In this document: in pieces, positions 19,517-43,313 of the stretch
Layout: every line of letters begins with the position of its first letter
Position numbering within the stretch: position 1 is the stretch's first letter
IMG/VR virus record: IMGVR_UViG_3300037067_026010
Span: 32,001 to 96,000 of that record
DNA: 64,000 nt
Reading direction: 5' to 3' (one strand)
Source of the DNA: a virus
Taxonomy: Duplodnaviria; Caudoviricetes
The notes under the pieces: model-generated
Told to the model about the DNA's origin: nothing
Seen by the model: only the letters and a program-made list of their open reading frames with translations
Database searches by the model: none
Translations under genes and position numbers: made by a program

Positions 19517-21850
19517 TTAGGCGACTTCGCCCAGATCAGTGGACGTGCTGGTTTCCTCGGGGTACGGTTCGATCGTTTTTTGCTTCAAAAACATGATGAC
19601 GTCGCCCAAGTCTTCAAAACTGTTCCTTAGGGCATCCTCGAGTTCGCTCATGTCCGCCTTGCCATAGCGTTCGGAAAAGCGGTCGCCGTGCCAGTAAAAG
19701 GCAAATAGCAGTCGCCCAAGGCGGTCCATGCCCTTCACCAGGTCCGGGATATGCCGCTCGATCATCGTGTCGTCGCGCGTGCTTTTCAGCAAGCTGCCGA
19801 TCATGGCGGTATCGAAAATTTCCTTTTGGCCCGACTCCGCGGCACTCTGCAGTCGCTGTGCATCCATCGGATCGCCGACCGACGCTGGGCTGGGGTTGTA
19901 AATCGCCCGATCCGTTTGGGCGGCGGACAGCTCCGGTATCGTCAGATGCTGCTCCATGAGCCCTTGTGTCGGCGCCGTGGACCCCATGATGTTGTTTTCG
20001 CCGTACGGCGGGTCGGGAATGAACGGCGCCGTCGGCCCATCCTGCGTCAAATAAGGCGCCGCGTACTTGACACGGCAGCGCAGCACGCGTTTCACGGCAG
20101 CCTGCTTCATGAGTTCGCGGGCAACGTCTTCCCGGAAGCCGTGGTCGCGTACGAGCGTCAACAGCGTAGGAAGCGGGGACTGCGTCGCCGCATTGTTGAT
20201 GCTGTACTGCGTACCGTCGAAATGAACCTTCAAGCTCGCTGTTTTCGTAATGATGCCTATCTCGGCATCGATGTAATCTCCCGGGCGCAGCGGCATCGTG
20301 CTACTACGCGCACTACTACCGCAACAGGGTTCGGTGGATTTGGCGTCAGCATCGACCTGTGCCTGCTGGACTTTCAGAAGTTTTGCCCCCTTCGGCACCC
20401 AGACATCGCCGCGCACAACGCGGAAGCTCGTGCCGTCTTTGCCGTTGATATGCACCCGTTGTCCGTCGTAGGTTCCGCAGCAAGGGCCGCAGCACGATGT
20501 TACAGGGTAGGGCCGTTTGTCCAGACCGTATTCGCAGTAATCGCTAAAGTTCACGTCGTAGCTCGCGCGATCGTTCTCCGTGCCTAGGGAGAGGTCGACG
20601 CGGAACGGCAGCGTCGCTGCGCCGCGCTGGCCAAGCAGCATATAACGATTATCGCTTTTTTCCAGGGAATCCGGCGTCGGCAGGGCATCCCACCATTTCG
20701 TATACTCGGCGTCTTCGATCTTACTGACGCACCATATACGCGACGGGTGCGCATTGCACCAATCCGCCTCGCCTTCGACGCGCACGAGCGTCGCGAAATG
20801 CACCTGGCCGCCGGCACCGTACGGCTGCATAGCGATGAAACATTTCTCGAAAGTGCCCGGCTTGGTCAATACCTGGTACAGGCCGGTTTCCGTCGGATTG
20901 AACAGCTTGCGCTGCACTTGGATGCTGTAGGGCACGGACACCTGTTCGCCGGTCCGGCGATCGCGAATCAGCACGGTATCCTTGAGCAGCTTCTCCTGAT
21001 CCTCTTCCGTCAGCCCGTTAGGCAGTTCCGTCTCCTGGGTGGCGTCGTAGGTGATGATTTGAAGTTCCCCCGTTTTCACGGGGTGCTGTGCACGCGGCAC
21101 ATCCAGCACCGAACCGTAAAGCGGTGGAGCTTTACGTGGTTGTGCATTTGGAGCCAACACGCTGTTGGCGCGAATACCCGCTGCCTTGATGGCGGCATGG
21201 ACGGTCTCCAGACCGTGATACTCGTCAAACGCTGCAGCGATTTTCGGGTGCGTCGTGAGGAACTCGACCAGCGTCTCCAATACCCGTAGATCCGCCTGCT
21301 TGAGAAACGCGGGCATATTCAGGGCCTCCCCGACGTCTTGCATCGCCTTTCGCGTATCCAATAACGCCGTATGGGCAAATGCCGGCACGGCCGGCTGTGC
21401 CCAGGACGCGAACTTATGCGGCGACATCGACAGCCGGTTCAGCTCGGGCTGCCGGACGCCGAGACTGCCCGTATTGCGTGGGGTACCTTTGCCCAAGCCC
21501 GCCGGTTTGCGATTCAGCAGGTAATTGAGCCAGTTTTCCTTGAGCGGCATAAACAGATCGCTGTTCTTCAGATACAGCATCTCCGTGCCTTTCACGTTCC
21601 CCTGCAGGAAAAAGATTGGCACGAAAATCTGTTGACTGCCAACCTTGAATCCGACGACTCCCACCGCACGGTCGTTGTCATCGCCGCGCTCGAGCAGTTG
21701 AAAACCCTGCTCGTAGTCCAGCAGGGTGGGACACTTGTCCTTGAGCACGGCATGGGCCAGGGAAGAAAGGCTCGCTTCGAAATTGCCGGAATTCCCGTCC
21801 TCGCCGAGAGTTGCCATTTTCTGCCGCTGCGACTGCATAAGATAGGTCAT
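19517..21850 (-). CDS. Large virion/internal protein with multiple KxA sites
   Basis: Start ATG 21850 preferred; QKMAT, HKFAS, LKQAD, TKTAS, MKQAA and VKYAA divide the protein into segments. Confidence 0.7.
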   Translation of the reverse strand: MTYLMQSQRQKMATLGEDGNSGNFEASLSSLAHAVLKDKCPTLLDYEQGFQLLERGDDNDRAVGVVGFKVGSQQIFVPIFFLQGNVKGTEMLYLKNSDLFMPLKENWLNYLLNRKPAGLGKGTPRNTGSLGVRQPELNRLSMSPHKFASWAQPAVPAFAHTALLDTRKAMQDVGEALNMPAFLKQADLRVLETLVEFLTTHPKIAAAFDEYHGLETVHAAIKAAGIRANSVLAPNAQPRKAPPLYGSVLDVPRAQHPVKTGELQIITYDATQETELPNGLTEEDQEKLLKDTVLIRDRRTGEQVSVPYSIQVQRKLFNPTETGLYQVLTKPGTFEKCFIAMQPYGAGGQVHFATLVRVEGEADWCNAHPSRIWCVSKIEDAEYTKWWDALPTPDSLEKSDNRYMLLGQRGAATLPFRVDLSLGTENDRASYDVNFSDYCEYGLDKRPYPVTSCCGPCCGTYDGQRVHINGKDGTSFRVVRGDVWVPKGAKLLKVQQAQVDADAKSTEPCCGSSARSSTMPLRPGDYIDAEIGIITKTASLKVHFDGTQYSINNAATQSPLPTLLTLVRDHGFREDVARELMKQAAVKRVLRCRVKYAAPYLTQDGPTAPFIPDPPYGENNIMGSTAPTQGLMEQHLTIPELSAAQTDRAIYNPSPASVGDPMDAQRLQSAAESGQKEIFDTAMIGSLLKSTRDDTMIERHIPDLVKGMDRLGRLLFAFYWHGDRFSERYGKADMSELEDALRNSFEDLGDVIMFLKQKTIEPYPEETSTSTDLGEVA

Positions 21851-22005
21851 GAAATTCGTCCTTGAATCGTGGCCGAGCCGGGAAATACCCACGAACCCTT
21901 CTAATAGCCTAACAAATCATTCCCCGCGCCGCTATCCAAATTCCGGCAGCTGGTTTACGGCGCAGCAACGTGGGCAGATAGTTTTGCCGGATGGCTACAC
22001 GCTTG

Positions 22006-25000
22006 CTACCAGCCCTTCGTAGCACCCGTCCGTCCGAACTCGGTACCGGCGGCTAACGCCGGTACATAACTGGTGCCGCTGGTGTCAGATACATCCCCAC
22101 GGGCCACACCCTTGAGCAGGCTTTTTTTCTGATCGCCAGCCAAGAACCTCGTCATCCAGTCCGGGTCTTGGGCGGCGTTGGCCACTCCACGGATCATTTC
22201 CGGGGCGAAGGGCGGCGGATCTCTGTGGGCAAATATGCGTGTAACGCCGTACCGCTCCATAGCCGGCAACATGGACGGCTGCACCTTGGTGCCTATCGTA
22301 TGCTGGAGCACCGGTCGTTCCAAATAGTAGCCGACGGCTTGTTTCGGCGGTGCGATGATGTGACCCGGCCGCGGCATCCATTCTCGCTCGAGTGTCTGGT
22401 ACGGCACGACGTCGTCCGGCGCCCAATGCCCGTATTCCTCGGCAAGCCGCACATGATTGATCAAACCGCGCGCCAGCAACTCGATGTTCCTTCGGTGCGC
22501 CGAGACACCGGAGTCCGCCAACATTTTACGAAAGGCATCCACAAAATACCGACGGCCTTCGCCGATGCCCTTGTGTTTGACTATTTCCGCCGGATTGGGC
22601 GTACCGCCGCTCAGGATATCGCCGGCTTCCGCGTAGTCCCCGACTTTGACCTGCAACTTGCGATCGGCCGGCACGTAATGGTCCTCGCCCTCGATCGTGA
22701 CGTACGAGCCACCGGCAGGTGCTTCGCGTATATGGTTGATGCGACCATCCTTTTGTGCATGGGTGGCGCCGCCGGGAAAGTGTTTGGGAACCTGAATCAG
22801 GGCGTCAATGCCTTTAAAACCGGCGATAGCTCCGGCTTCGGCTGCACCGGCTACTCCCCCGGTGTGCTTCGAGGAGTTGGAGACGATTAGGCCATTTGCC
22901 AGAACAAAGAGATGCGAAGCATGATCCACTTCGAGATCATAAGTCTGCTGTAAACCGACCGGTGCCATTTCTTCACGCAGTAACTTGTAATAAGCGTGTG
23001 GCCGGATTACTTGCCAATTAGCAAGTTTCTCGGCCAAAACACGCTGCTTAACCCCGTAAAGGGGAATGGCTGCGGCACAACGGCGGATGCCGTCTTCGTG
23101 GGTAATGTCAATTTGATAAAGCGTACGTTTTCGGCCACTGTTATTATGGTACGGCCCGGTAGCGTATACCCCGAAACGCCAAGCTAGCAATTCCCTTACT
23201 TTGCGTGCCATAGCTAGTGACGTAGACGCAAAACCAAGATAGGGCTTGGCTCTGTCCGCATAACAATCCGGGGTGAAAACCGAGCCATCTGTGACCATGA
23301 GCCCGCCCAACAGGGCTGCAATAGATCGATTGTTCCAGCTGTCGATGGCTGCCGGCAATTCTTTTTCGTGAGCATATTTACCAAGCATCTCGTGGTCATG
23401 CAACCAGCGTCGAATTGGGTTAAGATAACCTTCCTTTATGCGTCCCTGACTATCCCGCGGTGCCGACGCCTGCACGAGCTGGCTTACCCGATAATACCCC
23501 GTATGCCCGGCTAAGCGTGTTAATTTCAAATTCAAAGGGGACAATTCTGCTTTCAAATCTTCAATCAGACTTGGATCATAACAACTGAAATTGACGCCAT
23601 TCGCGGCGTCCGTGTAACAACCGTCTCCAAGTACTAATCCCACTAGGAGAGCCATTGGCTCATCAACGTAACGTGCATCGTCGTCAAAAGCAATGGGCAA
23701 TACGGCGCGCAGTCGCCGCGTACGCAGCCCGACAGGGTATTGCATCGGTACGCCGTTAAAAACGTCCGCCTTGCAATTGGACGTGTAACGGATACCGAGG
23801 ATTTTGTGCTCCACCGTAGAGACCAGTGTTACACCGCTGTGGTCTCGCCTGAAGGGGTACCGGAAAAATGTACGGTAGCATGACCGCAAGCCGTTGTCGA
23901 AACAGCGTAGTACCTGTACCGGGAAGGTACGCCCGGTTTCATCCGCACCCAAAATCCAATCACCTGGGCGGACACGCTCGATCGCTTTTGTTGTCCAATC
24001 CGCCATGCGCACCAGTGTGCCCTGCGCCAGACAGATTTGCGCCTGTGTGATCGGCGCCGACAGTGCATGCGCCGCCGCCACGCCAATGAAGTCGCCTGTA
24101 GGCGGTATGCCGCCTCGCTCGCGCCTTCCGGCGTCACGTGCATAGACACCGCCGTCGGATGGGCCGCCCACCGTCGTACTGCGCACCAGGATTTCGTCGA
24201 CGCCTTTATTTTTTAGATCTCGGAGTATTTTCGGAGTGAGTTCCGTATTGCGGTTGTAGCCGCCGACGGCATGCGCCAAAAGCGCCCCGGCATTGTCCGG
24301 GTCGTCCGTGGCTATGGGCATTCCGCGCGGCATGGCCTCGTCGTAGGGCCGGTCGTCGTCGAGAGCGGAGACGAGTAGTCGGTGATTTGCCGCCACGAGC
24401 TGTTTCCCGAGGAAACCGGCTTTTGCGGTGGAAGCCTTCAAGTCAAGGATCCCCTTTCGTGCCCCGTAAGCTCCTGCAAAGTACTCGACGGGCGATAAAC
24501 CCTGGCTGTAACTGCGCGTGACGGGGACGGGCAACACGTTGCCGCGATGGTCCGTATACAGCAAGTCCGCCCCCACCAGGCTCGAAAGAAACTGTTCCCC
24601 CTGCTTGCTGCGGGCTCCACTGGCCACTTGGCGCCACAACGGGTTGTCCGTCTCAGCCAGCTCTTTGAGCAGCCTGGGCAGCATCTTGTTCTTCGCCATG
24701 CCTGCCGCGTGGATAACTCTGTCGTTCCGTTCGCTTTCCGACAGTTTGGGGTCCGAGAGGATGCGCTGGATTTCCGAACGCAGCTCCAGCTGCATTTGCT
24801 TGGCTGCCAGGGTGCTCTGCAGATGCTTGAGGCCGAAAGAGTAGCCGCCGGTGCTGTAGGCCGCATCCCGGCCTACGTCCGACAGCTTTTTCGAGACTTC
24901 GCGATATTTGTCCGGATGCTTTTCCGCTACGACCTGCAGCAACTTCTTCTGCATCTTGCCGTCGAGTACGCGGTCGTAGTCGCGCATATCCTCCGGCAAG

Positions 25001-25041
25001 GCTTCGTTGACGAGCAGTTGTCCGACGGTGGTTTTGAGCAT
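22006..25041 (-). CDS. rpoC: Phage multi-subunit RNA polymerase, beta' C-terminal part, intein-containing
   Basis: Bridge helix EYFAGAYGARKGILDLKASTAKAGFLGKQL; trigger loop AAAHALSAPITQAQI-[intein]-SSKHTGG; HRRNIELLARGL; DWMTRF...LLKGVARG. Confidence 0.9.
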   Translation of the reverse strand: MLKTTVGQLLVNEALPEDMRDYDRVLDGKMQKKLLQVVAEKHPDKYREVSKKLSDVGRDAAYSTGGYSFGLKHLQSTLAAKQMQLELRSEIQRILSDPKLSESERNDRVIHAAGMAKNKMLPRLLKELAETDNPLWRQVASGARSKQGEQFLSSLVGADLLYTDHRGNVLPVPVTRSYSQGLSPVEYFAGAYGARKGILDLKASTAKAGFLGKQLVAANHRLLVSALDDDRPYDEAMPRGMPIATDDPDNAGALLAHAVGGYNRNTELTPKILRDLKNKGVDEILVRSTTVGGPSDGGVYARDAGRRERGGIPPTGDFIGVAAAHALSAPITQAQICLAQGTLVRMADWTTKAIERVRPGDWILGADETGRTFPVQVLRCFDNGLRSCYRTFFRYPFRRDHSGVTLVSTVEHKILGIRYTSNCKADVFNGVPMQYPVGLRTRRLRAVLPIAFDDDARYVDEPMALLVGLVLGDGCYTDAANGVNFSCYDPSLIEDLKAELSPLNLKLTRLAGHTGYYRVSQLVQASAPRDSQGRIKEGYLNPIRRWLHDHEMLGKYAHEKELPAAIDSWNNRSIAALLGGLMVTDGSVFTPDCYADRAKPYLGFASTSLAMARKVRELLAWRFGVYATGPYHNNSGRKRTLYQIDITHEDGIRRCAAAIPLYGVKQRVLAEKLANWQVIRPHAYYKLLREEMAPVGLQQTYDLEVDHASHLFVLANGLIVSNSSKHTGGVAGAAEAGAIAGFKGIDALIQVPKHFPGGATHAQKDGRINHIREAPAGGSYVTIEGEDHYVPADRKLQVKVGDYAEAGDILSGGTPNPAEIVKHKGIGEGRRYFVDAFRKMLADSGVSAHRRNIELLARGLINHVRLAEEYGHWAPDDVVPYQTLEREWMPRPGHIIAPPKQAVGYYLERPVLQHTIGTKVQPSMLPAMERYGVTRIFAHRDPPPFAPEMIRGVANAAQDPDWMTRFLAGDQKKSLLKGVARGDVSDTSGTSYVPALAAGTEFGRTGATKGW
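22876..24033 (-). mobile_element. Intein (386 aa) with LAGLIDADG homing endonuclease, in the beta' trigger loop
   Basis: Starts CLAQGTLVRMAD, has block B STVEH, LLVGLVLGDG and LLGGLMVTDG motifs, and ends HLFVLANGLIVSN followed by Ser. Confidence 0.9.
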
Positions 25042-25083
25042 GGTGCTATTTCCGGCTGTCGTACTGCAGCCGGTCGTACAAAA

Positions 25084-25099
25084 CGGTAATTAAGCACCG
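25084..25099 (+). repeat. 16-bp quasi-palindrome CGGTAATTAAGCACCG, copy 2
   Basis: Exact match; about 42 bp upstream of the beta'-C start. Confidence 0.9.
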
Positions 25100-25360
25100 C
25101 TATCCGATAAGCTGTGCCGTATCGAAGCGCACCTGGGCCAACGGCGTCTGCTCCGGCTGCGTGCAGATCACCGTTTGCGCGACGCCGAGCTGCCGAAGCA
25201 GTTTGTCGAAGTCCTTATCGCCGACCCGTGCGACGTAGTAACCCTGGGTATCCCACTCCATCGCCATAATCAGCGGATTTCGGTGTGTATCGTAGACGAC
25301 CACGCGCGTGCACGGAATGCGCTGCGGGGCCCCCAGGCCGTTATGTATTTCTGCGATCAT
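25100..25360 (-). CDS. Hypothetical protein between RNAP genes
   Basis: 86 aa with AAGGA RBS. Confidence 0.7.
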   Translation of the reverse strand: MIAEIHNGLGAPQRIPCTRVVVYDTHRNPLIMAMEWDTQGYYVARVGDKDFDKLLRQLGVAQTVICTQPEQTPLAQVRFDTAQLIG

Positions 25361-25373
25361 CGAAACGGTTTCC

Positions 25374-26096
25374 TTAACCTGCCGCCCTCGTACGGCTGCG
25401 CATTAACGCCGCCAAAGCCGCCGCCCCCGTCGTCGGCGACGGTATCTCGGCCTCCGTCCTATCGATGGGACGACCGACGTAGGCCACCTTTGCTGTGTCC
25501 TGCTGCGCCAACTCGGGGCTGGCCCCCTGCATCGGTTCGATCGCCTGGATGGCGCTTTGCCCTGCGCCTTGTCCCGGGCTTTGTCCCTGGCTCTGCCCCT
25601 GGCCTTGTGCCATCGGATCGTTTGGTCCGCCCGGCAGTGCGGATTCCACCGGCGGAGGCCCGAATTGCCCGGGCGGCATGACCAGGGCCTCCGGCGGCAT
25701 CTGAATTTGCAGTGAATTCATGATAGCCGTCAGCATTTGCTGCAGATTGTACATGCGGTAGTCGAGCTGCGTCATCATCTCTTCGGGCTTGCGCTTTACC
25801 GGAGCAGGAGCTGCGGCTTGTCCCGGCATTTGTCCCGGCATTTGTCCCGGCATTGGCGGAGGCATTCCCATCATAGCCGTCGGATCCATGCCCGGCATCG
25901 GAGCTGCCGGCGGCGGTGCGCCAGGCATTCCCGGAGCACCCCCCGCGCCTGCCATCGCTGCAGGGTCCTGTTGCATCGCCGCGGGGTCCTGCGGCATCGC
26001 CGCGCCGGCGCCCTCGGGCGGCTGAAAGGCCTCCTTGGTTTGTTGCTGCCAGACGCGTTCTCTGGCCAAAGCGAGCAGTATGGGGTTGACGCTCAT
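25374..26096 (-). CDS. Pro/Gln/Met-rich disordered protein with KxA sites
   Basis: 240 aa; TKEAF and AKVAY; MPGQ and QGQS repeats; AGGAG RBS. Confidence 0.7.
   Translation of the reverse strand: MSVNPILLALARERVWQQQTKEAFQPPEGAGAAMPQDPAAMQQDPAAMAGAGGAPGMPGAPPPAAPMPGMDPTAMMGMPPPMPGQMPGQMPGQAAAPAPVKRKPEEMMTQLDYRMYNLQQMLTAIMNSLQIQMPPEALVMPPGQFGPPPVESALPGGPNDPMAQGQGQSQGQSPGQGAGQSAIQAIEPMQGASPELAQQDTAKVAYVGRPIDRTEAEIPSPTTGAAALAALMRSRTRAAG
25818..25853 (+). repeat. 12-bp tandem repeat x3 (encodes MPGQ)
   Basis: TTGTCCCGGCAT repeated three times. Confidence 0.9.
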
Positions 26097-26115
26097 GGTT
26101 TACTCCTGCGATTCG

Positions 26116-29100
26116 CTAATTGTGAACGACGACCTGGCGGTCTACGTTGATTTTTCCTTGACGATAAGCACGTACAGCGTCCGCTACTGTAGCAAAGTGT
26201 ACCGGTTTATTCTTTTTATCGATAGCCCCAGATGCCTCGTAAAGGCCTGCCGTGTATTCTTTACCGGGCGTTTGGTGCACCTGGAACGTCGACGGCGAGA
26301 AGAGATTGGAAGACGGCAGCATTTTCTCCAGGGCCTCCTGGGCCGCTTCGTCGGTGCCGGGTACGTGAAATTGCATCGTATTGCTTAGGAATACGCCGTC
26401 TACATCCATAAATGTTTCCGGTCCGGGCACGGTTAAATCGTATCCCGTCACGCATTGCTCGCCGACTTCGACGTTCGCGACCTGCTCCCATGTAATATCG
26501 GTGTTTCCAACGATATTTTGCCATAGCTCCCACTCTGGATGCATCGCAGCCTTGGTTACATCAACAAACTTGGTTATTCGTTCAGCGGATTGTCGTGTAA
26601 CGTAACCACTATGCCGCGCTCGCATAAATGCCATATAGATAGCTTCTTGCCCAGCCGGCCACTTTTTGTGATTTTTCGGCGTATACATAAGGCCTGTCAG
26701 CCACTTGGCTAATTCAAAGCTAACCGGAATAAGGTCATGGCGAACAGCGGCGGGCGTTGCCTCCACAACAATCGAACGCAGCTTCTGTAATTTGTCCGTA
26801 TGTACCATCACTGCACCGCCCCACTTCGCAATATCACCGTTGGCAAAAGATAATTGCCAAAAAGGCAGGCCTGCCGGCGTGTTGCTCGGCGTAATCCGGC
26901 CACGTATGCCTAAAGAAGCAGCCAACAGCCGCACTTCTTGCACAAGGCGCAGACTGCGACTGGAATAGCCTGACATCAGCTGCGGTTTTTTGCCCTTTGC
27001 CCTGGCTATTGAAATCGACCCATCCGTATCCATACAACCGGCGAATAATCCCATACGTGCCGCTCGCGGCGCTGCTAAGAACCAGCCCGGAAGATGCTTC
27101 GCCTCGGCAGTATGCCCGATCATAGGCGCCAATAGCCGCGCCAAGGTCACGCTATTGTAGGTGATCCGCTGGCTGTGACCATACGACGCGGTACTTATGA
27201 TATGTACGCCTTTTGGCCCGTCGCCTGCAAACAACGATGCAATAATCCGGGCAATTTTCTCCTGAACTTCACCGCTGATGCCTGCTAAACTGAAATCGCG
27301 GATAACTCCTCTCAAGCGTGTTGTCCACCCGTCGCCTACTGCACAACCGCACAAATAGCCAAAATCCTCGTCTAAGGCAATTTGTGGCTTGAGCCATAGC
27401 GGCTGTACCGTGTCTGGCAGCGGTGGCCGCACAATTTGCAATTCCGCGTGTTCCAGCGAAGCCAGATGGGCCGCGCGCGGCACCATAAATTTGCGGGACA
27501 GTGCGTCCTGCGGACGCGCTCGTGTAAGTGCCAGCGTGCCACAGGCTACACCATAAACCGCCCGAGGGTCGTCATCCGTGAAAATCTGGCGACCGGACTG
27601 TAACGTAACTGCGATCATCGGGCAATCGCGATGCACGGACCACACCGTCGGATGCCGCCAGACGGCTGCGCCAGTCACCGGGCAATGCGCCAGTACCTCC
27701 ACATCCTCCGGCACAGCGAACCAATCGATCGGACCATGTTGCCCGCGTGTTCGGTGCAGCAATTCGCCGTGTGGGAAATCTTGCAAATGCGTAAGAAATA
27801 CGTCGTAGCCGCGGCAATGCGGCAGCGCAACTTTAAAGCGTGCAGACATTTTGTGCTCCTGTAAAAATGTGGACGATTTCGTACTAGTCCGCATTATAAC
27901 ATCGAGCTTACTTTTTCTGCAACGCCAAAATACATGGGAAAATTGGCTATCGCCATCGAAGTCGGCGCTTAGACCACCGATAATCAACGGGCTAATCCTC
28001 AACACGTCCCCCTTTGCCAACTGCGGCTTTGCCGCCATCAGTCCAAAGCGGTGGAGCGTGGGTGCCCGGTTGATGATAACCGGCCGGCTTTCCATCTCTT
28101 CGAGGAGCGCCTTCCGAGCGGTCGGTGATCGATCTTCAACGAGGGCATTTGCCCGGAGCGTGGGGACGTTATTGCGCCGGAGATTGCGGATGACGAAGGG
28201 CTTATAGATTTCCCAGGCTTTGTCCTCGGGGAGACCCACCGTGTCCATATCCAGTTCAGGATCCGGCACAATAACCGCCCGGCCGACCAGGTCGACGCTT
28301 CCCCCGAGCAGCCTACGTTGCACCGACCCGAATTTTGGGGAGTGGCTAAAGACTTCGCGCAGGATGCCCCGGACATTGCGCTCTCGATTCTTGGGATGGA
28401 TGGGGTCGCCGAGGCCGACGACGCCCTTGAATGCGTTGTAGACATTTTGATGCTCCTCGCCGACGTTGTCGCCTAACTGCTCCTGTGCCTGTTTAAGCAA
28501 CTGCACGGAGTCGAACAATTCCTTATAAAGTAGATTTGCGTCATCCACCAAAGGCAGTTTCTTGGCACCGAGCGTGCTTACCGGCCGGAAGAACGGCGGA
28601 AGCACGGGAACCTTATCGAGCATCCATTCCCGCGGGTGAAGCTGCAGTTCCTGAGCACTTTTGAGATAGCCCAGCCGGCGCACCGCGATATCGCGCCGAG
28701 ACTTTTTGGCGCTGCGGATATCTTCGCGGCAACGCTCGATTTCCTTATCCACATTGATGTTGGCGAGCGCCGTGCCGATCGCTTGCGGCCCGGTCGTGCC
28801 GTTCAGTTGCAGCTTGTTCCCGATAATGTCTTGAAACTGCTGCTCCGTAAGCCCCAGCATCCGTCGGATGGGATCCTCCATGGCCGGGTTTGGGACGGGG
28901 TAGGGTAACGCAATATAAGCCCAATTCCTGCCGCCGTGTCCCCCTGTAGTAGCAGGGTCGAAGAGTCCTCCCGGAACCGGGCTGAGATCTTTCCAGTCCA
29001 CGGTTTCCAGCGTCAAGCCGCCGCGGCCGTCCGGAGTTCCCTTGATCTCGCGGTCGCCGGCAAGCTGCTCGACGTCGCGAGAGGTCAGCGCCATGATCTG

Positions 29101-32100
29101 CGTACGTTCGTTCGTTCGCACCGGGTGAATGCCGGAGGCGCGCAATTGGTTGATGAATTTTTCGTAGGCGACCGGCACGCGCGGCGTCGCCGGCTTGTGC
29201 CCCTGCATGTATTGTGCCCAGTAATCGGGATTGGCCTGGCCGCGCAGCAATTTCATGTCGCGAAGCACTTGCGTGCTGCCGTACGAAAGAAGGGCGCCTG
29301 ATTCCAATAACCCAAGCCGTTTGGAATTTGCAACCAGCGCCTGTCCGGCTATGTAAGTATGCGTATCCGCCACGGTAATATCGTATACATTCACTTCCGT
29401 TATTCCTGCTTTGTCGTGACGGTAAGGCCGGATACTCGCAATGCGCATAGGCACCAGGCCTAAACGGCTTACGCTGTCAATAGGCCGGGGCAACAAGTTA
29501 TGCTGCGCGTCCGCCACAAATCGTCGCAGGAAGGGTTTGGAGCCAGGAATAGCTGCGGCAGGCACCCATTGGGCGACAATTTCCGCCAATTTTCGACAGG
29601 CGTCCGCAGAGAGGCAAATATTTTTATCCTGCCCTAATGTGCATGTCGTGGCGTAGCGGGTATTGAGCCAATCCAATAGCAACTGACACGAGACATTGTC
29701 AAAGCCCATCGTACAAAGCTTACCCGTCAGGTGTACTCGACCTTTCTTCTTTGCTCGATTGGTAATAGACCCGTCATCCAATACCCAGGCGGCAACGCTT
29801 AAATCCGATAGTTGCTGTAACCATTCGACTGTTACGCGCTTTATATGGTTATCATCATAACAGGTCCGCTGTAGTGTGGCACATACATGATCTTCGTTAA
29901 TCCACAACACCCGACTATGATGCCGTTTACGTTTACCGCGCCCGTCGCCATGCACCGAGTCACAACTGCCTGGGCAGAGACCTCCCAGAATTTTACGTTT
30001 CCATTGCAAATACGCGCTTTGTTTTATCGAATGTTCGCAGCTGACCGCGTTGTTGTCTACCGTAGCGTCCCCCAACATAGTCCCATACAAAAAGGCCCAT
30101 TGCTGTGCCGTAGGTAACAGGCCCCACGTGATCAGCTGATCGTTTTGCCGTAACTCGCTCACCGGAATACGCCCGCGGGTATACTCAAAAATTTCATGGT
30201 TCCGCGTGGCATACAGGCAAGATCGTGTTCTATTTACGCGTGAGGTCTTTTCGCAAGGTCCACCGATCGTTTCAATTGTCACGATGTCGTCGATGTTTGC
30301 CCGATAAATAAACCAATCAATTACCGGGCGGTAGACCCACTCCTGTAACTGCGGCGAAAAGGTACGGACTTGTACGCCCAGTTGTTTTTCACAAATAGCG
30401 GCAATATCCATGCTGCCGCGTATCGTGACAATCTGCTGTTTAGCCGTAAAACAGCCTGCAGCGCCACCTTTCGCCGGCGCCATGTCCATCGTGTAAGCGC
30501 CTAGTCCACGACCTTGCAGTTTGTGTTCGGCTTGATGGTGCAGTTTCATCATGAAGATGTTTCCGGCCAGCACGCCGCTGATCTTGCGATCGGTCGTCGG
30601 GTCGGTGATGTCTTCGAGATCGCTTATGCCGTGTTTGCGGCATTCTTCCAATGCCCACGCCGCCAGATCCTTTTGGTCGTCGAAGTCGGGAACCTTGTAC
30701 GGTTTCCCCGTTTTTTCGGCGATTTTACCGAGCGCAACTTCGATAACCTGCGCCGGATTGGTTCTCGACAATATGCTCAGGGGATCCATGAGCACCTCGA
30801 AGGGCCGGCCGTCGGCGCCGTGCGGCATTTCGCCGTCGGGAATGATGGCGGACACGACCATCTTATTGCCGTGCCGGCCCGCCAGCTTGTCCCCCACCTG
30901 CATCTGCGCCGTGCTCTTGACGATGACGTTGATTCCTTTGGGCGATACGTCCACGTCGGTCACCAAACCCGGATTATGGTGCTCCCACAATATAGATTCA
31001 TCAATGGGCGTCAGTTTGCGATGCACCTGCTTGGCAGTCGCAGCGCGTTTGCGCGCCACGAGGACCAGCGGCTCCCCTGGTTGCACTGTCGTCCCGGGTT
31101 TGATGACGCCGCGTTCGTCGAAATTCGCCAGGATCTTGCGATCGAATTTGCCGGGAAACATGCTCCGAAAATAGGACTTGTCGGTGCGGACCGTGCTGTC
31201 GTCCAGGTCGAGACCGTGCTGATACATATGCTCGGATACCAGCCGCTTCGCCGCGCTCTCGGAGATAACGGTAGCGTCCTCGTGGTTCAAACCGCGGAAA
31301 GGAATGTACGCCGCGCGCAGATTCCGCCCGATGGCCATCGTCCCCTGTGCATCCGTATAATTCGACTTGGCCAGGAGTTGACCTGGTTGTACGACATCTC
31401 CGGGGCGCACGGCCGGAGTCTGGTGCCAGTACGTTTTGCGATTTGACGGGAAGTGGTTGTACAGCTCGTGCGTTTCCGTGTTGCCGTCCGCACGGCGGAC
31501 CACAATGCCGTCCGGCGTGACGCTTTCCACCTTTCCCGGCTTGTCCGCGTACAAAGCCCCCATGTATCGCGAATACTCCTCTTCGTACGAGCGATCGGGC
31601 CGTTCCGGCATGGCATTCTGCACGAGTGGTGCCTCGGGATCGATCAATGGGAGCGCTTGGGCGATCATGCGTGAAGACATTATTGCCCTCTGGCCTTTTA
31701 CTAGACTCTTGAGGGGCACGAGGTTGCCCAGCGGGCTGAAGGCATGCTCCATGTACGGCAATTCAAATGCAACTTCCGCGCGCGGCACATTTTTGATTTT
31801 GCCGTTGACGACTGCAGCGACGTACGGGCTATTGCGCCGGAGTTCGTTCGGAAAAGCTACGGCTTGGCCTACCAGGTCCTGCGGGGTTTTATAGACGGTT
31901 CGGCCTTGCATGTCCTGCAATTGCGCGTAGAGCTTGCCGTTCGGGCCTTTCCTGGTATGCACCGCCATGCGCAAGTCGATTCCCGACTTGGTCGACTCCG
32001 GCGTACGTAGAAAGTCCACAAGAGCGAGTTGACTGGCGTGGACGACCCTGGATTCCTGCGGAACCGCCTCCGAGGACAGGCCGCCCTCGCCCAAGCGCGT

Positions 32101-33243
32101 TACGCGCGTCTGGTGATCCAAGAGTTCGGCAGGATTGACCTCCTCGGGAGATTGGCCCAAGCCGCTCGTCAGCAGCGCGGACTGCAGCGCGCCATTGAAC
32201 ATGCCGGGTATCAGATGTTCCAGATTGCCGCGTGCGCTCGCTTTCCATAAAAGCTTTTGCAGCGTGCCGCGATCGCGCTTGATGCGTTCCGCAAAAATAT
32301 CCTCGGGGCCGAGGATGCGCTGGTAGGCCATGTCGTCGCGATCGTCGACCTCCGATTCGCGCCGATTCACGGCAATAAGCTTTTTAGTCACGGCCAGCAG
32401 CGTGTCGGGGGTCACGCGCGTAAACGGCTGACCCAGCGTTCGCTGCGTCACGACGGGATCGATCTCCATGCGTTCGAATACTTCGCGCAGCGATTGCTCC
32501 TGGGCTTCATAAGGAGCGTTCGGGTCGCTGTATTTGCACAGCCGTTTGTAGAGCGCCTGGATTTTCTTCGGGTCGTCTTTCTGCATATTCGCCGCGGTCA
32601 GCTCGTTGCCCCAGGCGTCCCGTATAGCCTTTTCGGAAAGACCGAGCGTCTTCAAAAGCGGGAAAAGCGGCAGTTGCGCCTGGCCGATCTGCATCGTGAA
32701 GATGCCGGTGGACGGCTCCAGCGAAATCCTGTGCCCCAGACCCTTGGCGACGTTGACGTGCGCTTCGATCTCGCCGTTGGCCTTTTCCCGCGTAAATACG
32801 CCGGGCAACAGACGCAATTGATGCGCCATGCTGTATTCGGTGCCGTTGTGGATAAAGGTGCCGCGTTCCGTCAAGTGCGGCACCGTCCCCAGCGTTACTT
32901 TGCGCCGGGCCGTTTCCTGCCCATTGGCGCCGGTCAGCACAAAAGTACCGCGCAACCGTCGGCCGGGCGAGCCGCGCCCAAGAATGGCCTGCTTTTGCGT
33001 GGCCAGCGAGAACTTATCCGGATCGGCATAGTGCACGTCGGTAAGCGCGAGGGTGTGGAGGGCGTTGCTGACGGGGGCCATATCGCGCGCGGCCTGCAGT
33101 GCGTTGTCGTAAAGCAGCTTTCGCGTGGCCGGCGCGTCGGCAAAGCGCCGCGAATCGGGTATTTCCGGCGTCGGCGGCAGAAACGGTTGTTCAGGAGCTG
33201 CCGGCGGCGTCATGGAATCAAGAATACTGTTGCTCATAGCCAT
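26116..33243 (-). CDS. rpoB: Phage RNA polymerase beta subunit fused to beta' N-terminal/catalytic part, with two inteins
   Basis: Beta motifs GTFIHNGTEY, RTPES, GLNHEDA, GDKLAGRHGNK and KLHHQAEHK, then beta' motifs VPVLPPFFRP, LLGGSVD, NRAPTLH and ADFDGD. The likely start is ATG 33243, since the longer ORF overlaps the upstream gene. Confidence 0.92.
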   Translation of the reverse strand: MAMSNSILDSMTPPAAPEQPFLPPTPEIPDSRRFADAPATRKLLYDNALQAARDMAPVSNALHTLALTDVHYADPDKFSLATQKQAILGRGSPGRRLRGTFVLTGANGQETARRKVTLGTVPHLTERGTFIHNGTEYSMAHQLRLLPGVFTREKANGEIEAHVNVAKGLGHRISLEPSTGIFTMQIGQAQLPLFPLLKTLGLSEKAIRDAWGNELTAANMQKDDPKKIQALYKRLCKYSDPNAPYEAQEQSLREVFERMEIDPVVTQRTLGQPFTRVTPDTLLAVTKKLIAVNRRESEVDDRDDMAYQRILGPEDIFAERIKRDRGTLQKLLWKASARGNLEHLIPGMFNGALQSALLTSGLGQSPEEVNPAELLDHQTRVTRLGEGGLSSEAVPQESRVVHASQLALVDFLRTPESTKSGIDLRMAVHTRKGPNGKLYAQLQDMQGRTVYKTPQDLVGQAVAFPNELRRNSPYVAAVVNGKIKNVPRAEVAFELPYMEHAFSPLGNLVPLKSLVKGQRAIMSSRMIAQALPLIDPEAPLVQNAMPERPDRSYEEEYSRYMGALYADKPGKVESVTPDGIVVRRADGNTETHELYNHFPSNRKTYWHQTPAVRPGDVVQPGQLLAKSNYTDAQGTMAIGRNLRAAYIPFRGLNHEDATVISESAAKRLVSEHMYQHGLDLDDSTVRTDKSYFRSMFPGKFDRKILANFDERGVIKPGTTVQPGEPLVLVARKRAATAKQVHRKLTPIDESILWEHHNPGLVTDVDVSPKGINVIVKSTAQMQVGDKLAGRHGNKMVVSAIIPDGEMPHGADGRPFEVLMDPLSILSRTNPAQVIEVALGKIAEKTGKPYKVPDFDDQKDLAAWALEECRKHGISDLEDITDPTTDRKISGVLAGNIFMMKLHHQAEHKLQGRGLGAYTMDMAPAKGGAAGCFTAKQQIVTIRGSMDIAAICEKQLGVQVRTFSPQLQEWVYRPVIDWFIYRANIDDIVTIETIGGPCEKTSRVNRTRSCLYATRNHEIFEYTRGRIPVSELRQNDQLITWGLLPTAQQWAFLYGTMLGDATVDNNAVSCEHSIKQSAYLQWKRKILGGLCPGSCDSVHGDGRGKRKRHHSRVLWINEDHVCATLQRTCYDDNHIKRVTVEWLQQLSDLSVAAWVLDDGSITNRAKKKGRVHLTGKLCTMGFDNVSCQLLLDWLNTRYATTCTLGQDKNICLSADACRKLAEIVAQWVPAAAIPGSKPFLRRFVADAQHNLLPRPIDSVSRLGLVPMRIASIRPYRHDKAGITEVNVYDITVADTHTYIAGQALVANSKRLGLLESGALLSYGSTQVLRDMKLLRGQANPDYWAQYMQGHKPATPRVPVAYEKFINQLRASGIHPVRTNERTQIMALTSRDVEQLAGDREIKGTPDGRGGLTLETVDWKDLSPVPGGLFDPATTGGHGGRNWAYIALPYPVPNPAMEDPIRRMLGLTEQQFQDIIGNKLQLNGTTGPQAIGTALANINVDKEIERCREDIRSAKKSRRDIAVRRLGYLKSAQELQLHPREWMLDKVPVLPPFFRPVSTLGAKKLPLVDDANLLYKELFDSVQLLKQAQEQLGDNVGEEHQNVYNAFKGVVGLGDPIHPKNRERNVRGILREVFSHSPKFGSVQRRLLGGSVDLVGRAVIVPDPELDMDTVGLPEDKAWEIYKPFVIRNLRRNNVPTLRANALVEDRSPTARKALLEEMESRPVIINRAPTLHRFGLMAAKPQLAKGDVLRISPLIIGGLSADFDGDSQFSHVFWRCRKSKLDVIMRTSTKSSTFLQEHKMSARFKVALPHCRGYDVFLTHLQDFPHGELLHRTRGQHGPIDWFAVPEDVEVLAHCPVTGAAVWRHPTVWSVHRDCPMIAVTLQSGRQIFTDDDPRAVYGVACGTLALTRARPQDALSRKFMVPRAAHLASLEHAELQIVRPPLPDTVQPLWLKPQIALDEDFGYLCGCAVGDGWTTRLRGVIRDFSLAGISGEVQEKIARIIASLFAGDGPKGVHIISTASYGHSQRITYNSVTLARLLAPMIGHTAEAKHLPGWFLAAPRAARMGLFAGCMDTDGSISIARAKGKKPQLMSGYSSRSLRLVQEVRLLAASLGIRGRITPSNTPAGLPFWQLSFANGDIAKWGGAVMVHTDKLQKLRSIVVEATPAAVRHDLIPVSFELAKWLTGLMYTPKNHKKWPAGQEAIYMAFMRARHSGYVTRQSAERITKFVDVTKAAMHPEWELWQNIVGNTDITWEQVANVEVGEQCVTGYDLTVPGPETFMDVDGVFLSNTMQFHVPGTDEAAQEALEKMLPSSNLFSPSTFQVHQTPGKEYTAGLYEASGAIDKKNKPVHFATVADAVRAYRQGKINVDRQVVVHN
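26380..27948 (-). mobile_element. Intein (523 aa) with LAGLIDADG endonuclease, inserted immediately after the catalytic ADFDGD
   Basis: ADFDGD|SQFSHV...YLCGCAVGDG...FAGCMDTDG...YDLTVPGPETFMDVDGVFLSN|TMQFHVP; removing it restores ADFDGDTMQFHVP. Confidence 0.88.
29326..30453 (-). mobile_element. Intein (376 aa) with LAGLIDADG endonuclease, in the beta C-terminal conserved region
   Basis: KGGAAG|CFTAKQQI...ATRNH...YGTMLGDA...WVLDDGS...VYDITVADTHTYIAGQALVAN|SKRLGLLE. Confidence 0.9.
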
Positions 33244-33245
33244 TG

Positions 33246-34286
33246 CTACGCCTGGGCGAATTCTTCGGGGGTAACGACATCTGCCACGGCCACGGGCGGC
33301 GTGGGCCTGCCAGCGCGCTCCATCCGTCGTTGCCGCAGGGCTTCTTCGAGGGCGTGGGCTTTGCTCCGCGATCGCGTCCATTGATAAGTGCCGATGCCGG
33401 ATCCGACGGCCAGCAGCCCCATCAGCGTCGCCATGGCACCTTCCGTGTAATTTGCCGCGGTGCTTACCGGTTGCGGCGCGAGTTGGCCGAGACTGGGCAC
33501 AGAGATAGGCGCACCGGTAAACGGATTCGTATAATCCGCGCATTTGCTCCAGGCGTCGGCCAGTTGCTGCATGGTGGCACCGATTCCCGCACTCGCGGTT
33601 TTGGCAGGCGGCAGCATAGCGGCATATTGCTCGTTTAAAGCCGCACGGTACTCCGATTTGCTTTGTTGCAGTTTCTTCGCCAGTTCGGCTTTGCGGCGTT
33701 TTGCCAGCAGCCAGTCCACCAGTTTCCAACCGCCGAACACCGATAGTCCGGCAGCCCCTAAACCGATAGGGATGTACGCAGCGCTAAACCTGGGATCGGG
33801 GGCCGGCATCCCGGCAACATCCGCCGTACCGGGTGCAACCGGTTCCAATTTTTTTGCCAGCCAGCCGCTGATACCGTCGTCCGCGGCCTGTTTGGCCAGA
33901 TCCGCAGCAAGAGTGTCGAGAGAGCCATACTTGTAGGCTGGTGCACGCTGCGCCTGTAAGGCCAGCCGCCGTAAATCCGAATCGGGCGTCAGTCCCAGCC
34001 GCGCTTTGTCCTCGACATCCTGGGCTTCTTGCTGCACTACTGGGATACGCAAAGTGCGCGGCAGCACGGGACTGGCGTCCTGCGGTGGTTTTGCCCCCGA
34101 TAAGACGCGCATAAGCTCCAATGCTCCCCGGCCGACCATGCCGGCTCCAAGGGCCGCGCCGGACGCGTTGAGAACGGCTTTGAGCGCCTGGACCTTGCGG
34201 GCTTGTTCCGCAGCGTCCTCCGCCAGTTTGCGAAGCTCACGCGGCCCCACCTGGGGCAAGCGGGAAAGTGTAGGTGTCGGCAGCAT
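33246..34286 (-). CDS. Glycine-zipper membrane protein with KxA sites
   Basis: Three hydrophobic Gly-rich segments separated by RKLA, AKQAA, AKTAS and SKCA. Confidence 0.7.
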   Translation of the reverse strand: MLPTPTLSRLPQVGPRELRKLAEDAAEQARKVQALKAVLNASGAALGAGMVGRGALELMRVLSGAKPPQDASPVLPRTLRIPVVQQEAQDVEDKARLGLTPDSDLRRLALQAQRAPAYKYGSLDTLAADLAKQAADDGISGWLAKKLEPVAPGTADVAGMPAPDPRFSAAYIPIGLGAAGLSVFGGWKLVDWLLAKRRKAELAKKLQQSKSEYRAALNEQYAAMLPPAKTASAGIGATMQQLADAWSKCADYTNPFTGAPISVPSLGQLAPQPVSTAANYTEGAMATLMGLLAVGSGIGTYQWTRSRSKAHALEEALRQRRMERAGRPTPPVAVADVVTPEEFAQA

Positions 34287-38643: not shown

Positions 38644-38645
38644 AC

Positions 38646-39095
38646 TTAACCTCCTGCCGCCCAGGCAAATGCCTGATAGCATTCGATGACTTTGTTGCGC
38701 CGCTCCGGCGTAATCGGCCCGGGGTCGTCGCCGGCCCACTTCAACATGGCACTGTTCATGGCGTCGCTTAATCCCGGCACGGGCTTAAATTCAGCGCCAA
38801 AACGCAGATTGGCGACATTGTCGTTGTAAGCGCTTAACGTACCGGCGTCTTTGATCAAATTGCCGGCGTCGCGCTGAATCATCGCCGCCGTCGCAAGGCA
38901 GTAATTGGCAAATTCGATGCGTTGCGGGTGTTCCGCCATATCCCGCTTGATTCCGGCGACGAGCGTTTGCAGCTCCGCCACGGGTTCGGAGACGACGGAC
39001 GCCGTCGATGATTCTACGATATAAGGCGCTGCAAACGGCGCGCCGACGCCGACGACGATTAGGATTGCTAAAACCCAATTTAACAATGGTTTCAT
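38646..39095 (-). CDS. Membrane-anchored/secreted protein
   Basis: 149 aa, N-terminal hydrophobic signal/anchor. Confidence 0.7.
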   Translation of the reverse strand: MKPLLNWVLAILIVVGVGAPFAAPYIVESSTASVVSEPVAELQTLVAGIKRDMAEHPQRIEFANYCLATAAMIQRDAGNLIKDAGTLSAYNDNVANLRFGAEFKPVPGLSDAMNSAMLKWAGDDPGPITPERRNKVIECYQAFAWAAGG

Positions 39096-42572: not shown

Positions 42573-43313
42573 CTACGGGCTGCCGGTTGTGGCCGCACAT
42601 ATTTCTGTTGTGTTCGCATGGGTGGTAAAAGTGTTAATAGAGGGGGATAACCAGTCCGGAGCGCGTCTTGCCGATAATAATTCCGGATCTATGTTACGAC
42701 ACTGTTTGTGTAAGCGGCTTACCGCTGCTCGGATTAACGCATTCACGTAATGCCGCGAGCATTGCAATTCTTGCGTTATCTCGCCACGCGACATGCCGGC
42801 CAGCCGCATTTCGAGAGCCTGGCGCTGCCGAAGCGACAGCCTGGTAACCGCAATGCGGAAAGCGTGCCGACTTTCCTGCTGCAAAAGACGGCGTATCGGC
42901 GGATCCTCGTACCAGCCCTGTACCGAGGTTGCATAAATTTGCCGGGGCGGCCGGCGGCGACTGTTTGGCCTGCGGACATACTGTTCCGTGCCTTGCTGCT
43001 TCCTGGCGTTTTGAATGGCCTGGCGAATCCAATAGGCTGCATAATTTGCAAAACGGTGTCCCCGACCCTCCTGCCAGCGTTCGATAGCCACTATCAGCCC
43101 CAAGATGCCGTCTTGAAAAAGATCTCGTAGAAGTTCACGAGGTTGTCGCAGGCCGCGGGCTATGTGCCAGACAAGACGCTGATTGCACAAAATAAGTTGC
43201 TCTCTAGCCTTGCCACAACCGTTGTGGGCGGCCCGTAGATAGGCTAATTCTTCGTCCGCCGTCAAAGGCGTTGCCGTAGTCGCATTATCGAAGACGCACT
43301 TCCCTGCCGTCAT
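42573..43313 (-). CDS. Sigma70-family RNA polymerase sigma factor
   Basis: Region 1.2 LTADEE; region 2 AREQLILCNQRLVWHIA...DLFQDGILGLIVAIERW...RFANYAAYWIRQAI; region 4 LSLRQRQAL...HTH. Start ATG 43313 (ATGA overlap). Confidence 0.88.
   Translation of the reverse strand: MTAGKCVFDNATTATPLTADEELAYLRAAHNGCGKAREQLILCNQRLVWHIARGLRQPRELLRDLFQDGILGLIVAIERWQEGRGHRFANYAAYWIRQAIQNARKQQGTEQYVRRPNSRRRPPRQIYATSVQGWYEDPPIRRLLQQESRHAFRIAVTRLSLRQRQALEMRLAGMSRGEITQELQCSRHYVNALIRAAVSRLHKQCRNIDPELLSARRAPDWLSPSINTFTTHANTTEICAATTGSP

Follow-up and report, generated by a model that had tools for sequence, protein, structure and literature searches.

The window analysed here is a stretch of 64,000 nucleotides (nt), positions 32,001 to 96,000 of the IMG/VR record IMGVR_UViG_3300037067_026010, which belongs to a tailed-phage (Caudoviricetes) genome of 210,569 bp with a completeness rating of 100%. 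Nearly all genes of the window lie on the minus strand, and two of them code for an RNA polymerase of the multi-subunit kind, interrupted by three inteins. Positions are counted from the first nucleotide of the window unless the genome or another contig is named, and protein sizes are given in amino acids (aa). The polymerase genes and the inteins are the following:

26116..33243, minus strand: beta::beta'N fusion gene, 2375 aa encoded, 1476 aa without its two inteins
22006..25041, minus strand: beta'C gene (bridge helix, trigger loop and C-terminal domains), 1011 aa encoded, 625 aa spliced
29326..30453, minus strand: intein 1, 376 aa, fusion residues 931-1306, LAGLIDADG_2 match
26380..27948, minus strand: intein 2, 523 aa, fusion residues 1766-2288, with a LAGLIDADG endonuclease
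22876..24033, minus strand: intein 3, 386 aa, beta'C residues 337-722, Hint and LAGLIDADG_3 matches

An initial annotation of this DNA had described beta as fused to the N-terminal, catalytic half of beta' (about 1476 aa after removal of the inteins), with beta'-C as a separate gene of about 625 aa once spliced. Translation, BLASTP and Pfam agree on the fusion, the translation and the intein limits confirmed the separate gene, and every sequence string quoted in that annotation occurs in the two translations. When compared by BLASTP to E. coli K-12, the spliced fusion matched RpoB residues 115-1336 and then RpoC residues 144-550, and the product of the beta'C gene matched RpoC residues 662-1261, with 25-30% identity. 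The fusion is made of RpoB and of RpoC residues ~1-555, with a short linker between them, and contains the Pfam domains Rpb2_6 (E 4e-49), Rpb2_3 and Rpb1_2; beta'C contains Rpb1_5. The ATG at 33243 was taken as the start of the fusion, and the N-termini of its homologues align from there. A longer frame, starting with a TTG and extending to 33729, was rejected because it overlaps the upstream gene.

The catalytic elements of the enzyme are conserved. The lysine motif of beta (GDK..GRHGNK) is kept, with GDKLAGRHGNKM aligned to E. coli residues 1064-1075 (GDKMAGRHGNKG), and NRAPTLHR is present in the fusion. The catalytic Mg loop reads SADFDGD, followed by T once spliced, and the fusion chain terminates 87 aa past DFDGD. 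The replacement of NADFDGD by SADFDGD, pointed out by the initial annotation, was seen in the alignment; the first residue of the loop, Ser instead of Asn in the window, is Gly in 95 of the 119 homologues listed. YFAGAYGARKG and TQAQI/SSKHTGG (here and below, a slash within a motif marks the intein insertion or splice site) fall on the bridge helix and the trigger loop when aligned with E. coli. The exteins retain their catalytic residues, and the reading frames are open across 7.1 and 3.0 kb. In the rifampicin pocket, Q513, H526, R529 and L533 are kept and D516E, S531T and F514S are changed, a pattern from which sensitivity is not predictable. These features identify the gene products as a bacterial-type two-barrel polymerase, predicted to consist of two polypeptides.

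A six-frame search of the whole genome with hidden Markov models gave no match for alpha (PF01000) or omega (PF01192), while all 14 of 14 control genomes were positive (homologues recognisable from structure alone were not sought); this agrees with the earlier statement that neither subunit is recognisable. The T7-type polymerase (PF00940) gave no match in the genome either, although the control set could not give one. Since a single locus with the beta domain Rpb2_6 is present in the whole 210,569-bp genome, the beta-beta'N and beta'C pair is the only RNA polymerase of this phage.

The fused polymerase family and its zinc sites

The fused polymerase is widespread in virus genomes. The search with the beta extein returned at least 120 clusters of 1364-1488 aa and 52-56% identity, all with Rpb2_6 and Rpb1_2 and many of them on contigs of 190-230 kb, and the beta'C search returned at least 119 clusters, mostly of 620-655 aa. 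At least 119 fusion and at least 106 intein-free beta'C homologue clusters share sizes and domains. In six relatives whose loci were fetched, the gene order is a ~300-aa open reading frame (ORF), the fusion, a 227-263-aa low-complexity ORF, a 79-85-aa ORF, beta'C and a ~800-aa ORF, with occasional insertions. Among cultured phages, Salmonella phage Arash (OQ632216; gp206, 1525 aa, and gp216, 606 aa) and Vibrio phages D69, D148 and D181 come closest. The moraphages (PMC12619734) were considered as the source lineage and rejected, polymerase genes being absent from those phages. The Arash paper labels the genes simply beta and beta' and mentions neither fusion and split nor zinc sites (PMC10585845); the paper by Weinheimer and Aylward (2020) on mReC, a metagenomic lineage of Caudovirales with a multisubunit polymerase, is silent on fusion, inteins, zinc and virions (PMC7481178), and jumbo-phage polymerase reviews of 2020, 2021 and 2026 do not cover the fused family. 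No description of the fused and split layout was found in the literature searched. The fused polymerase is a real, well-conserved and little-described variant of the phage multisubunit RNA polymerase.

The enzymes of the Arash/D69 type share most of this organisation. Their fusion (1525-1527 aa) and beta'C (606-609 aa) can be aligned with those of the window over their full length (24-33% identity), the zinc ribbon is missing from the identical place, the split lies 87-90 aa past DFDGD, sigma-family genes are present, and the structural block downstream is collinear in Arash. They differ in that the second zinc site has all its four cysteines in Arash and D69 and none in the clade of the window, in that the catalytic loop reads AADYDGD instead of SADFDGD, and in the absence of inteins. 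In Arash the fusion gene has the portal gene beside it, and nine genes lie between it and the gene of the other subunit; the two small ORFs that lie between the polymerase genes in the window (240 and 86 aa, see below) were not found there.

That both zinc sites of beta' lack their cysteines, as the initial annotation had noted, is borne out by the alignments. The zinc ribbon (E. coli C70/C72/C85/C88) is deleted, and in the family alignment GGLFD..TGGHGG.RNW is followed at once by the next conserved strand; in the window, D/G/Y/D takes the place of C814/C888/C895/C898 at the second site. The ribbon is absent from every member of the fused family examined. The four cysteines of the second site are kept in Arash, D69 and contigs L005 and L049, and were lost in the clade of the window and in L060/L063, apparently independently; the L060/L063 enzymes are zinc-free and their beta' part is without cysteine.

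The loss of cysteine goes beyond the zinc ligands. Spliced beta'C of the window contains no cysteine, and the same is true, within the clade of the window, of 105 out of 106 intein-free beta'C and 112 out of 119 fusion homologues listed. The whole spliced enzyme has 3 scattered cysteines in 2101 residues as compared to about 2.2% in the ORF set of the genome (binomial P ~5e-15), a baseline that derives from crude ORF calls made in this analysis and is to that extent a point against reading much into the figure. The other cysteine-free proteins longer than 200 aa are a sigma-like protein resembling Arash gp10, the product of the 240-aa ORF that separates the polymerase genes, and a protein of 1021 aa encoded upstream of that sigma gene, all of which are described below.

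Inteins in the polymerase genes

The limits of the inteins were drawn from the flanking conserved motifs. Intein 1 interrupts the conserved C-terminal motif of beta, GG..G/SKRLG (Cys1, block B TRNH, end AN/S); intein 2 immediately follows the Mg-binding DFDGD (Ser1, TDDD instead of TxxH, end SN/T); intein 3 lies in the trigger loop, TQAQI/SSKHTGG (Cys1, block B TVEH, end SN/S). Inteins 1 to 3 therefore have Cys, Ser and Cys at position 1, a terminal Asn, and Ser, Thr and Ser at position +1, as class 1 inteins do. Each is matched by Pfam LAGLIDADG_2/3 and contains two LAGLIDADG motifs, in pairs ending with GDA and DDG, GDG and TDG, and GDG and TDG, respectively. The GC content of the inteins is 0.50-0.54 (0.504 in intein 1) as compared to 0.59-0.61 in most of the extein DNA, which fits mobile inserts. 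When inteins 1 and 2 were compared to PDB sequences, only marginal matches were obtained, to the C-terminus of a DnaB intein and to a LAGLIDADG endonuclease.

The three homing inteins would have to be removed by splicing before the enzyme could work, and splicing of all three is an assumption of our reading against which several features weigh. The penultimate His is absent from all three inteins, which have Ala, Ser and Ser instead; intein 2 is without the block-B histidine; and Pfam detects just the C-terminal splicing block of intein 2 (Intein_splicing). Together with Ser1 of intein 2, these features are what speaks for the possibility that the polymerase genes are decaying, that the inteins, notably the one in the Mg loop, no longer splice and that the enzyme is dead. 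We regard this possibility as very unlikely, considering that the frames and the catalytic residues described above have remained intact and that the genome has no other polymerase.

The comparison of intein 2 with its relatives also argues against decay. Homologues 35-46% identical to intein 2 occur at the same DFDGD/T site in 11 IMG/VR contigs. The IFTDDDPRAVYG block of intein 2 is kept in L260, the one homologue aligned, and an intein 42% identical to intein 2, inserted at the same site, shares its TDDDP block. Intein 2 is a member of a real intein family. In 8 of these 11 contigs the C-terminal piece has its own ATG, with in-frame stops before it.

These eight contigs (L262-L269, IMG/VR sample 3300045988) hold a candidate natural split form of intein 2, with a very short N-fragment, in the active site of the polymerase. 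In L262 the beta'N gene (L262:144-1925) stops 13 residues into the intein (DFDGD/CQWGHVFVCIRNS-stop), and about 1 kb downstream, past a 158-aa ORF, a separate gene (L262:2953-3927) encodes the rest of the intein (~220 aa) and the C-extein TMNVHVP; the other seven have the same separate C-terminal gene with in-frame stops ahead of it. With beta'N cut inside the intein, an intact catalytic loop would be possible only through trans-splicing, and the need of these relatives for it is a further point against loss of function. The contiguous homologues of intein 2 in L259, L260 and L261 (near position 3001) start with Gln (DFDGD/QQ...) and keep SN/T; given this first residue, they are without an N-terminal nucleophile. 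In the window, intein 2 has an in-frame ATG at residue 34 (position 27849) with an AGGAG 6 nt ahead of it (27847-27860, minus strand). This ATG is near the point at which the separate C-terminal gene of the split relatives begins: the conserved GYxVFL motif follows it by 14 residues, as compared to 21 in those relatives. The internal start may be either a relic or a working start.

Inteins are found elsewhere in the family and in this genome. About one tenth of the beta'C homologues listed have an intein at the trigger-loop site of the window or four residues later. A 36%-identical fusion gene of 1804 aa (L005:9977-15391) contains an insert of ~350 aa, probably an intein, at the GDK..GNK lysine motif of beta, and is followed by an HNH-like 211-aa ORF in place of the low-complexity protein. 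In the window, a 587-aa ORF (36976-38739, minus strand) contains another intein (Hom_end_hint, Hint_2 and Intein_splicing). The genome is intein-rich, with three inteins in the polymerase, one in the 587-aa ORF and one in a 1447-aa terminase outside the window.

Phylogeny and comparison with known polymerases

The initial annotation had proposed that the enzyme is distinct from ordinary bacterial rpoBC and may belong to the mReC lineage, and that the intein-free subunits be compared with cellular, phiKZ, crAss and mReC polymerases. The comparison was carried out for beta' with cellular and mReC sequences; identified phiKZ and crAss polymerases were left out, being too divergent for the alignment used. 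Sequences of beta' were gathered from IMG/VR and from GTDB species genomes by means of degenerate DNA patterns for NADFDGD[QE]M. The tree comprises 67 sequences (bacteria sampled as one per phylum and viral groups as representatives) and 423 columns around the catalytic loop, and was inferred with IQ-TREE under LG+C20+F+G4 in its posterior mean site frequency (PMSF) form, with a short search. Contigs L032 (149,482 bp) and L077 (29,248 bp) are published mReC contigs that were included in it.

The fused family forms one clade outside all sampled bacterial phyla (support 99 in the Shimodaira-Hasegawa-like approximate likelihood ratio test, SH-aLRT), and Bacteria form one group (SH-aLRT 92). The mReC-a and mReC-b sequences form a separate clade (SH-aLRT 94), with L032 and L077 placed outside the fused clade. 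The fused family, mReC-a/b and a long-branch viral group with beta'N only are together sister to Bacteria (SH-aLRT 95), with no resolution among the three. In the tree of Bacteria, Archaea and the fused family alone, the family falls outside all 36 bacteria, which represent more than 20 phyla, with a support of 73 for bacterial monophyly. The approximately unbiased (AU) test did not reject a tree that joins the fused family with Bacteria (p 0.56), and this constrained tree scored 2.7 log units higher. These results support the view that the fused family is a lineage of its own, on a long branch, and no ordinary bacterial rpoBC.

The domain order and the order of beta before beta' are bacterial, and both a fusion and a split of this kind have cellular counterparts. 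Fusions of rpoB and rpoC, with beta head-to-tail with beta' and a short linker, are natural in Helicobacter and have been engineered in E. coli, and a split inside beta' is tolerated in cyanobacteria and plastids. All these enzymes keep alpha, omega and both zinc sites, whereas the enzyme of the window is without them. That an ordinary rpoBC operon was recently captured from a bacterium, or that the contig is in fact bacterial, is for us hardly credible. The identity to E. coli is low, as reported above, the family lies outside the 36 sampled bacteria (although the support for bacterial monophyly is just 73-92), and the genes reside in a 210-kb virus genome with a portal, a terminase and a structural block in common with Arash.

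The relation to mReC deserves more attention. Like the fused family, mReC polymerases are bacterial-type beta and beta' enzymes of uncultured large tailed phages, found outside Bacteria, and the free tree joins them with the fused family and the beta'N-only group (SH-aLRT 95; FastTree 90); mReC-a has also lost the zinc ribbon. It could therefore be thought that the enzyme is a member of the mReC lineage with re-partitioned genes. In mReC, though, beta and beta' genes are unfused and often present as two paralogous sets, mReC-b keeps both zinc sites and mReC-a the second, and beta' contains 8-21 cysteines. The published mReC genes encode beta (~1000 or ~1365 aa) and beta' (~900-1010 aa) separately, and none corresponds to a pair of ~1476 and ~625 aa. 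Many mReC genomes carry two polymerase sets, the genome of the window one. The fused family and mReC are separate clades (99 and 94), and joining the former to Bacteria is not rejected and gives a slightly better score. The mReC capsid is of the T4 gp23 type (PF07068 / VOG11186) (PMC7481178); PF07068 gave no six-frame match in the genome, a negative with a weak control, as no control genome could match either. A search for the capsid gene with Arash gp226 (307 aa) as tblastn query also gave no match in the genome. On these grounds membership of mReC does not stand as it was stated, while the distinctness of the lineage does, and we consider a re-partitioned mReC enzyme improbable.

In several mReC contigs (L029/L079, which are one contig, L032, L042, L077 and similar) two polymerase sets differ in zinc content: the ~900-aa beta' has both zinc sites and 19-21 cysteines, whereas the zinc ribbon has been lost from the ~1005-aa beta', which has 8-13 cysteines. 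This difference recalls a division of labour between virion and non-virion polymerases.

The polymerases of the phiKZ/AR9 type are similar in being phage two-barrel enzymes without alpha and omega, of which one set is packaged in the head, and in a split of beta' a little past the DFDGD loop. They are far more divergent, consist of four or five pieces and have no sigma-70 homologue (PMC7598289, PMC13282480), and a 2026 review likewise describes phage multisubunit polymerases as being without sigma homologues. Beta of the window matched AR9/PBS1 beta over 10-12% of the query (E 2e-7) and beta of Staphylococcus phage SA1 over 17% (E 6e-7), as compared to a coverage of 61-66%, with E 1e-23 to 1e-52, for full-length bacterial RpoB in the same search. 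Sixteen cysteines remain in the virion polymerase of phiKZ.

The fused family itself suggests how the two chains arose. Complete beta::beta' single-chain fusions are found on its basal branches (L049/L090, L060/L063, of more than 2000 aa, and L085, whose frame continues into beta'C); these enzymes are 33-34% identical to that of the window. The split forms (L005, Arash/D69, L036 and the clade of the window) make up the remaining branch (SH-aLRT 84). The split occurs 87-90 aa past DFDGD in the fused family, as compared to 153-159 in cyanobacterial and 409-447 in archaeal enzymes and to 64-80 in the long-branch beta'N-only group. The simplest reading of these sequences is that a full beta::beta' fusion came first and was then split once, 87-90 aa after DFDGD. 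According to the tree, the split within beta' would have arisen on the branch from which Arash, the Vibrio phages and the clade of the window descend. The zinc ribbon was lost in the family, and the second zinc site, with almost every cysteine, later in the clade of the window.

Neighbouring genes, sigma factors and possible virion packaging

The features around the polymerase genes that bear on its expression and on its possible packaging are the following:

33246..34286, minus strand: 346-aa ORF directly upstream of the fusion gene, its position kept in relatives (290-366 aa)
25374..26096, minus strand: 240-aa ORF between the polymerase genes, rich in P/A/G/M/Q, low-complexity, with one conserved helix and no cysteine
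25100..25360, minus strand: conserved 86-aa ORF just upstream of beta'C, its sequence not omega-like
19517..21892, minus strand: 791-aa protein related to Arash gp218, opening a block collinear with Arash gp218-gp236
39601-40227, minus strand: 208-aa ORF, E 7e-8 for a staphylococcal-nuclease (SNase) domain, in the block that separates the polymerase and sigma genes
42573..43466, minus strand: sigma-70 family gene, Sigma70_r2 and r4_2 (regions 2 and 4), 8 cysteines
genome 21687-22550, outside the window: second sigma-like gene, Sigma70_r3, resembling Arash gp10, no cysteine
25085..25098, minus strand: copy of the motif CGGTGCTTAATTACCG, 44 nt upstream of the beta'C start codon
35902..35915, minus strand: copy of CGGTGCTTAATTACCG, the nearest upstream of the genes that run into the fusion gene, candidate promoter of this run

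The two ORFs between the polymerase genes are conserved in relatives. The 240-aa ORF has 96 representatives, all similar in size, and occupies the same position in the six relatives. For the 86-aa ORF, a word-index search for homologues returned only the query itself and Pfam gave no match, but the fetched contigs contain five positional homologues, 27-35% identical and with 12 invariant columns. A complex prediction of a 79-aa positional homologue with intein-free beta'C (the L012 pair, run with alignments) gave a score of 0.00, which is evidence for neither side. Among 20 neighbour proteins, Pfam found sigma domains, one SNase and one intein in another gene, and nothing else; a PHROGs scan of ten neighbour proteins gave a single match, to a family of unknown function.

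The genome contains 22 copies of the 16-nt motif CGGTGCTTAATTACCG if up to 2 mismatches are allowed in its 14-nt core. Eighteen of them lie between ORF calls, and many of the copies have a start codon 1-100 nt downstream; chance alone would give about 0.002 exact copies. Another copy precedes the portal gene. The distribution suggests a candidate phage-specific promoter. In the window, copies are found at 6536 (+), 17200 (+), 25085 (-), 35902 (-) and 50046 (-). Several copies run against the direction of the genes around them, and a simple promoter reading does not account for them. The 14-nt motif had no match in any fetched locus of relatives, and appears to be specific to the genome of the window.

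The initial annotation had suggested, from the position of the genes, that the enzyme is packaged in the virion. The main support for this suggestion comes from Arash. In gradient-purified Arash particles, gp206 was the top protein, with 128 peptides and 3516 spectra, and gp216 gave 1210 spectra; sigma gp10 and helicase gp217 were also detected, and sigma gp196 is not in the table (PMC10585845). In the genome of the window, the genes downstream of beta'C are collinear with the Arash structural genes verified by proteomics (gp218, gp222, gp233, gp234 and gp236). A pair of sigma factors, one free of cysteine and the other containing it, is seen in this phage and in Arash alike.

The cysteine content of Arash proteins was also considered. 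gp206 has 1 cysteine, gp4 0, gp229 2, gp10 0 and gp217 0, and gp216 has just the four zinc ligands; Arash TerL, the alpha subunit of ribonucleotide reductase (RNR) and the primase contain 1.2-2.4%. In phiKZ, cysteine makes up 0.61% of the virion polymerase as compared to 1.16% of its non-virion paralogue (Fisher p 0.043); for the internal head proteins the figure is 0.37%. The phiKZ trend is in the expected direction, and modest.

The 1021-aa protein mentioned above (genome 25426-28491; L255:4427-7492, minus strand), which is encoded just outside the window, contains no cysteine and has no Pfam match. It lies upstream of the gp10-like sigma, like Arash gp4 (1097 aa, cysteine-free and very abundant in virions), and is a candidate internal or ejected virion protein.

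A different explanation is that the polymerase is purely intracellular and serves the transcription of middle or late genes, that the Arash signal is carry-over of a protein very abundant in infected cells, and that cysteines and zinc were lost for another reason, such as a habitat that is oxidising or poor in metals or a constraint that relaxed once the genes had fused. Several points weigh on this side and against packaging. As many as 116 of 252 Arash proteins were detected in the preparation, including ribonucleotide reductases and helicases, and the Arash authors caution that abundant intracellular enzymes may carry over (PMC10585845). The case leans on Arash, a relative just 31-33% identical. 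In the genome of the window the gp218-like, gp222-like and portal virion proteins have an ordinary cysteine content, so that depletion is not a general virion trait and its cause is a matter of inference. The Arash polymerase, although packaged, retains the second zinc site, and zinc loss is therefore not required for packaging. That the phage sigmas pair with the phage core rather than with that of the host is likewise something we infer. The copy of CGGTGCTTAATTACCG ahead of beta'C, like that ahead of the portal gene, fits ordinary late expression and is silent on packaging. On the other hand, the spectra of Arash gp206 exceed those of the major capsid protein, and gp216, gp217 and gp218 are similarly high. 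Moreover, the depletion of cysteine selectively affects the polymerase, one of the sigmas and a small number of large proteins, not the genome as a whole, and the division between a cysteine-free and a cysteine-bearing sigma recurs in both phages. We hold the intracellular explanation to be unlikely. Packaging of the enzyme into the virus particle, as in Arash, is in our analysis the most likely reading, and the earlier suggestion stands as plausible, short of proof.

The sequence of events that would follow from packaging can be outlined. The two barrels would be held together by the fusion, which may be why the core needs neither alpha nor omega, and the core would work with phage-encoded sigma-70-family factors. 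The enzyme would be produced late, packed in the capsid with the cysteine-free sigma, and would enter the host with the DNA to transcribe the early genes independently of the host. A metal-free and thiol-free protein might better tolerate the oxidising extracellular world and unfolding and refolding during delivery. The second sigma, which contains cysteine, would redirect newly made enzyme later in infection. Taken as a whole, a two-chain, zinc-free fused polymerase that is spliced, uses sigma, is packaged and is delivered for early transcription seems to us the best explanation of the data, and a fairly likely one, at about two in three. The broader proposal, that a clade of ~200-kb phages has a zinc-free, nearly cysteine-free, alpha- and omega-free two-chain polymerase, packaged with its own sigma and injected with the genome, is more tentative, and we would put it at somewhat below an even chance.

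Multisubunit RNA polymerases are highly conserved, and the zinc sites of beta' and the alpha-dimer assembly platform are usually taken as fixed. If the proposal is true, this would be the first sigma-dependent virion RNA polymerase, and a natural example showing that the two conserved zinc sites of beta' can be dispensed with. The purge of cysteine would then be a signature that predicts packaged or ejected phage proteins, and a cheap one for the virion cargo of uncultured phages. The family itself displays a natural series, from a full beta::beta' fusion to a new split, to the loss of one zinc site and finally to the loss of both and of nearly all thiols, and with it offers a minimal, cofactor-free bacterial-type core for structural and biotechnological work. 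These questions are directly testable, as metagenomes contain the family in abundance and Arash is a cultured and tractable member of it. The fused polymerase would represent a third route to host-independent early transcription, beside the single-chain virion polymerases of N4 and crAss and the multi-piece ones of phiKZ and, unlike these, it would still use sigma.

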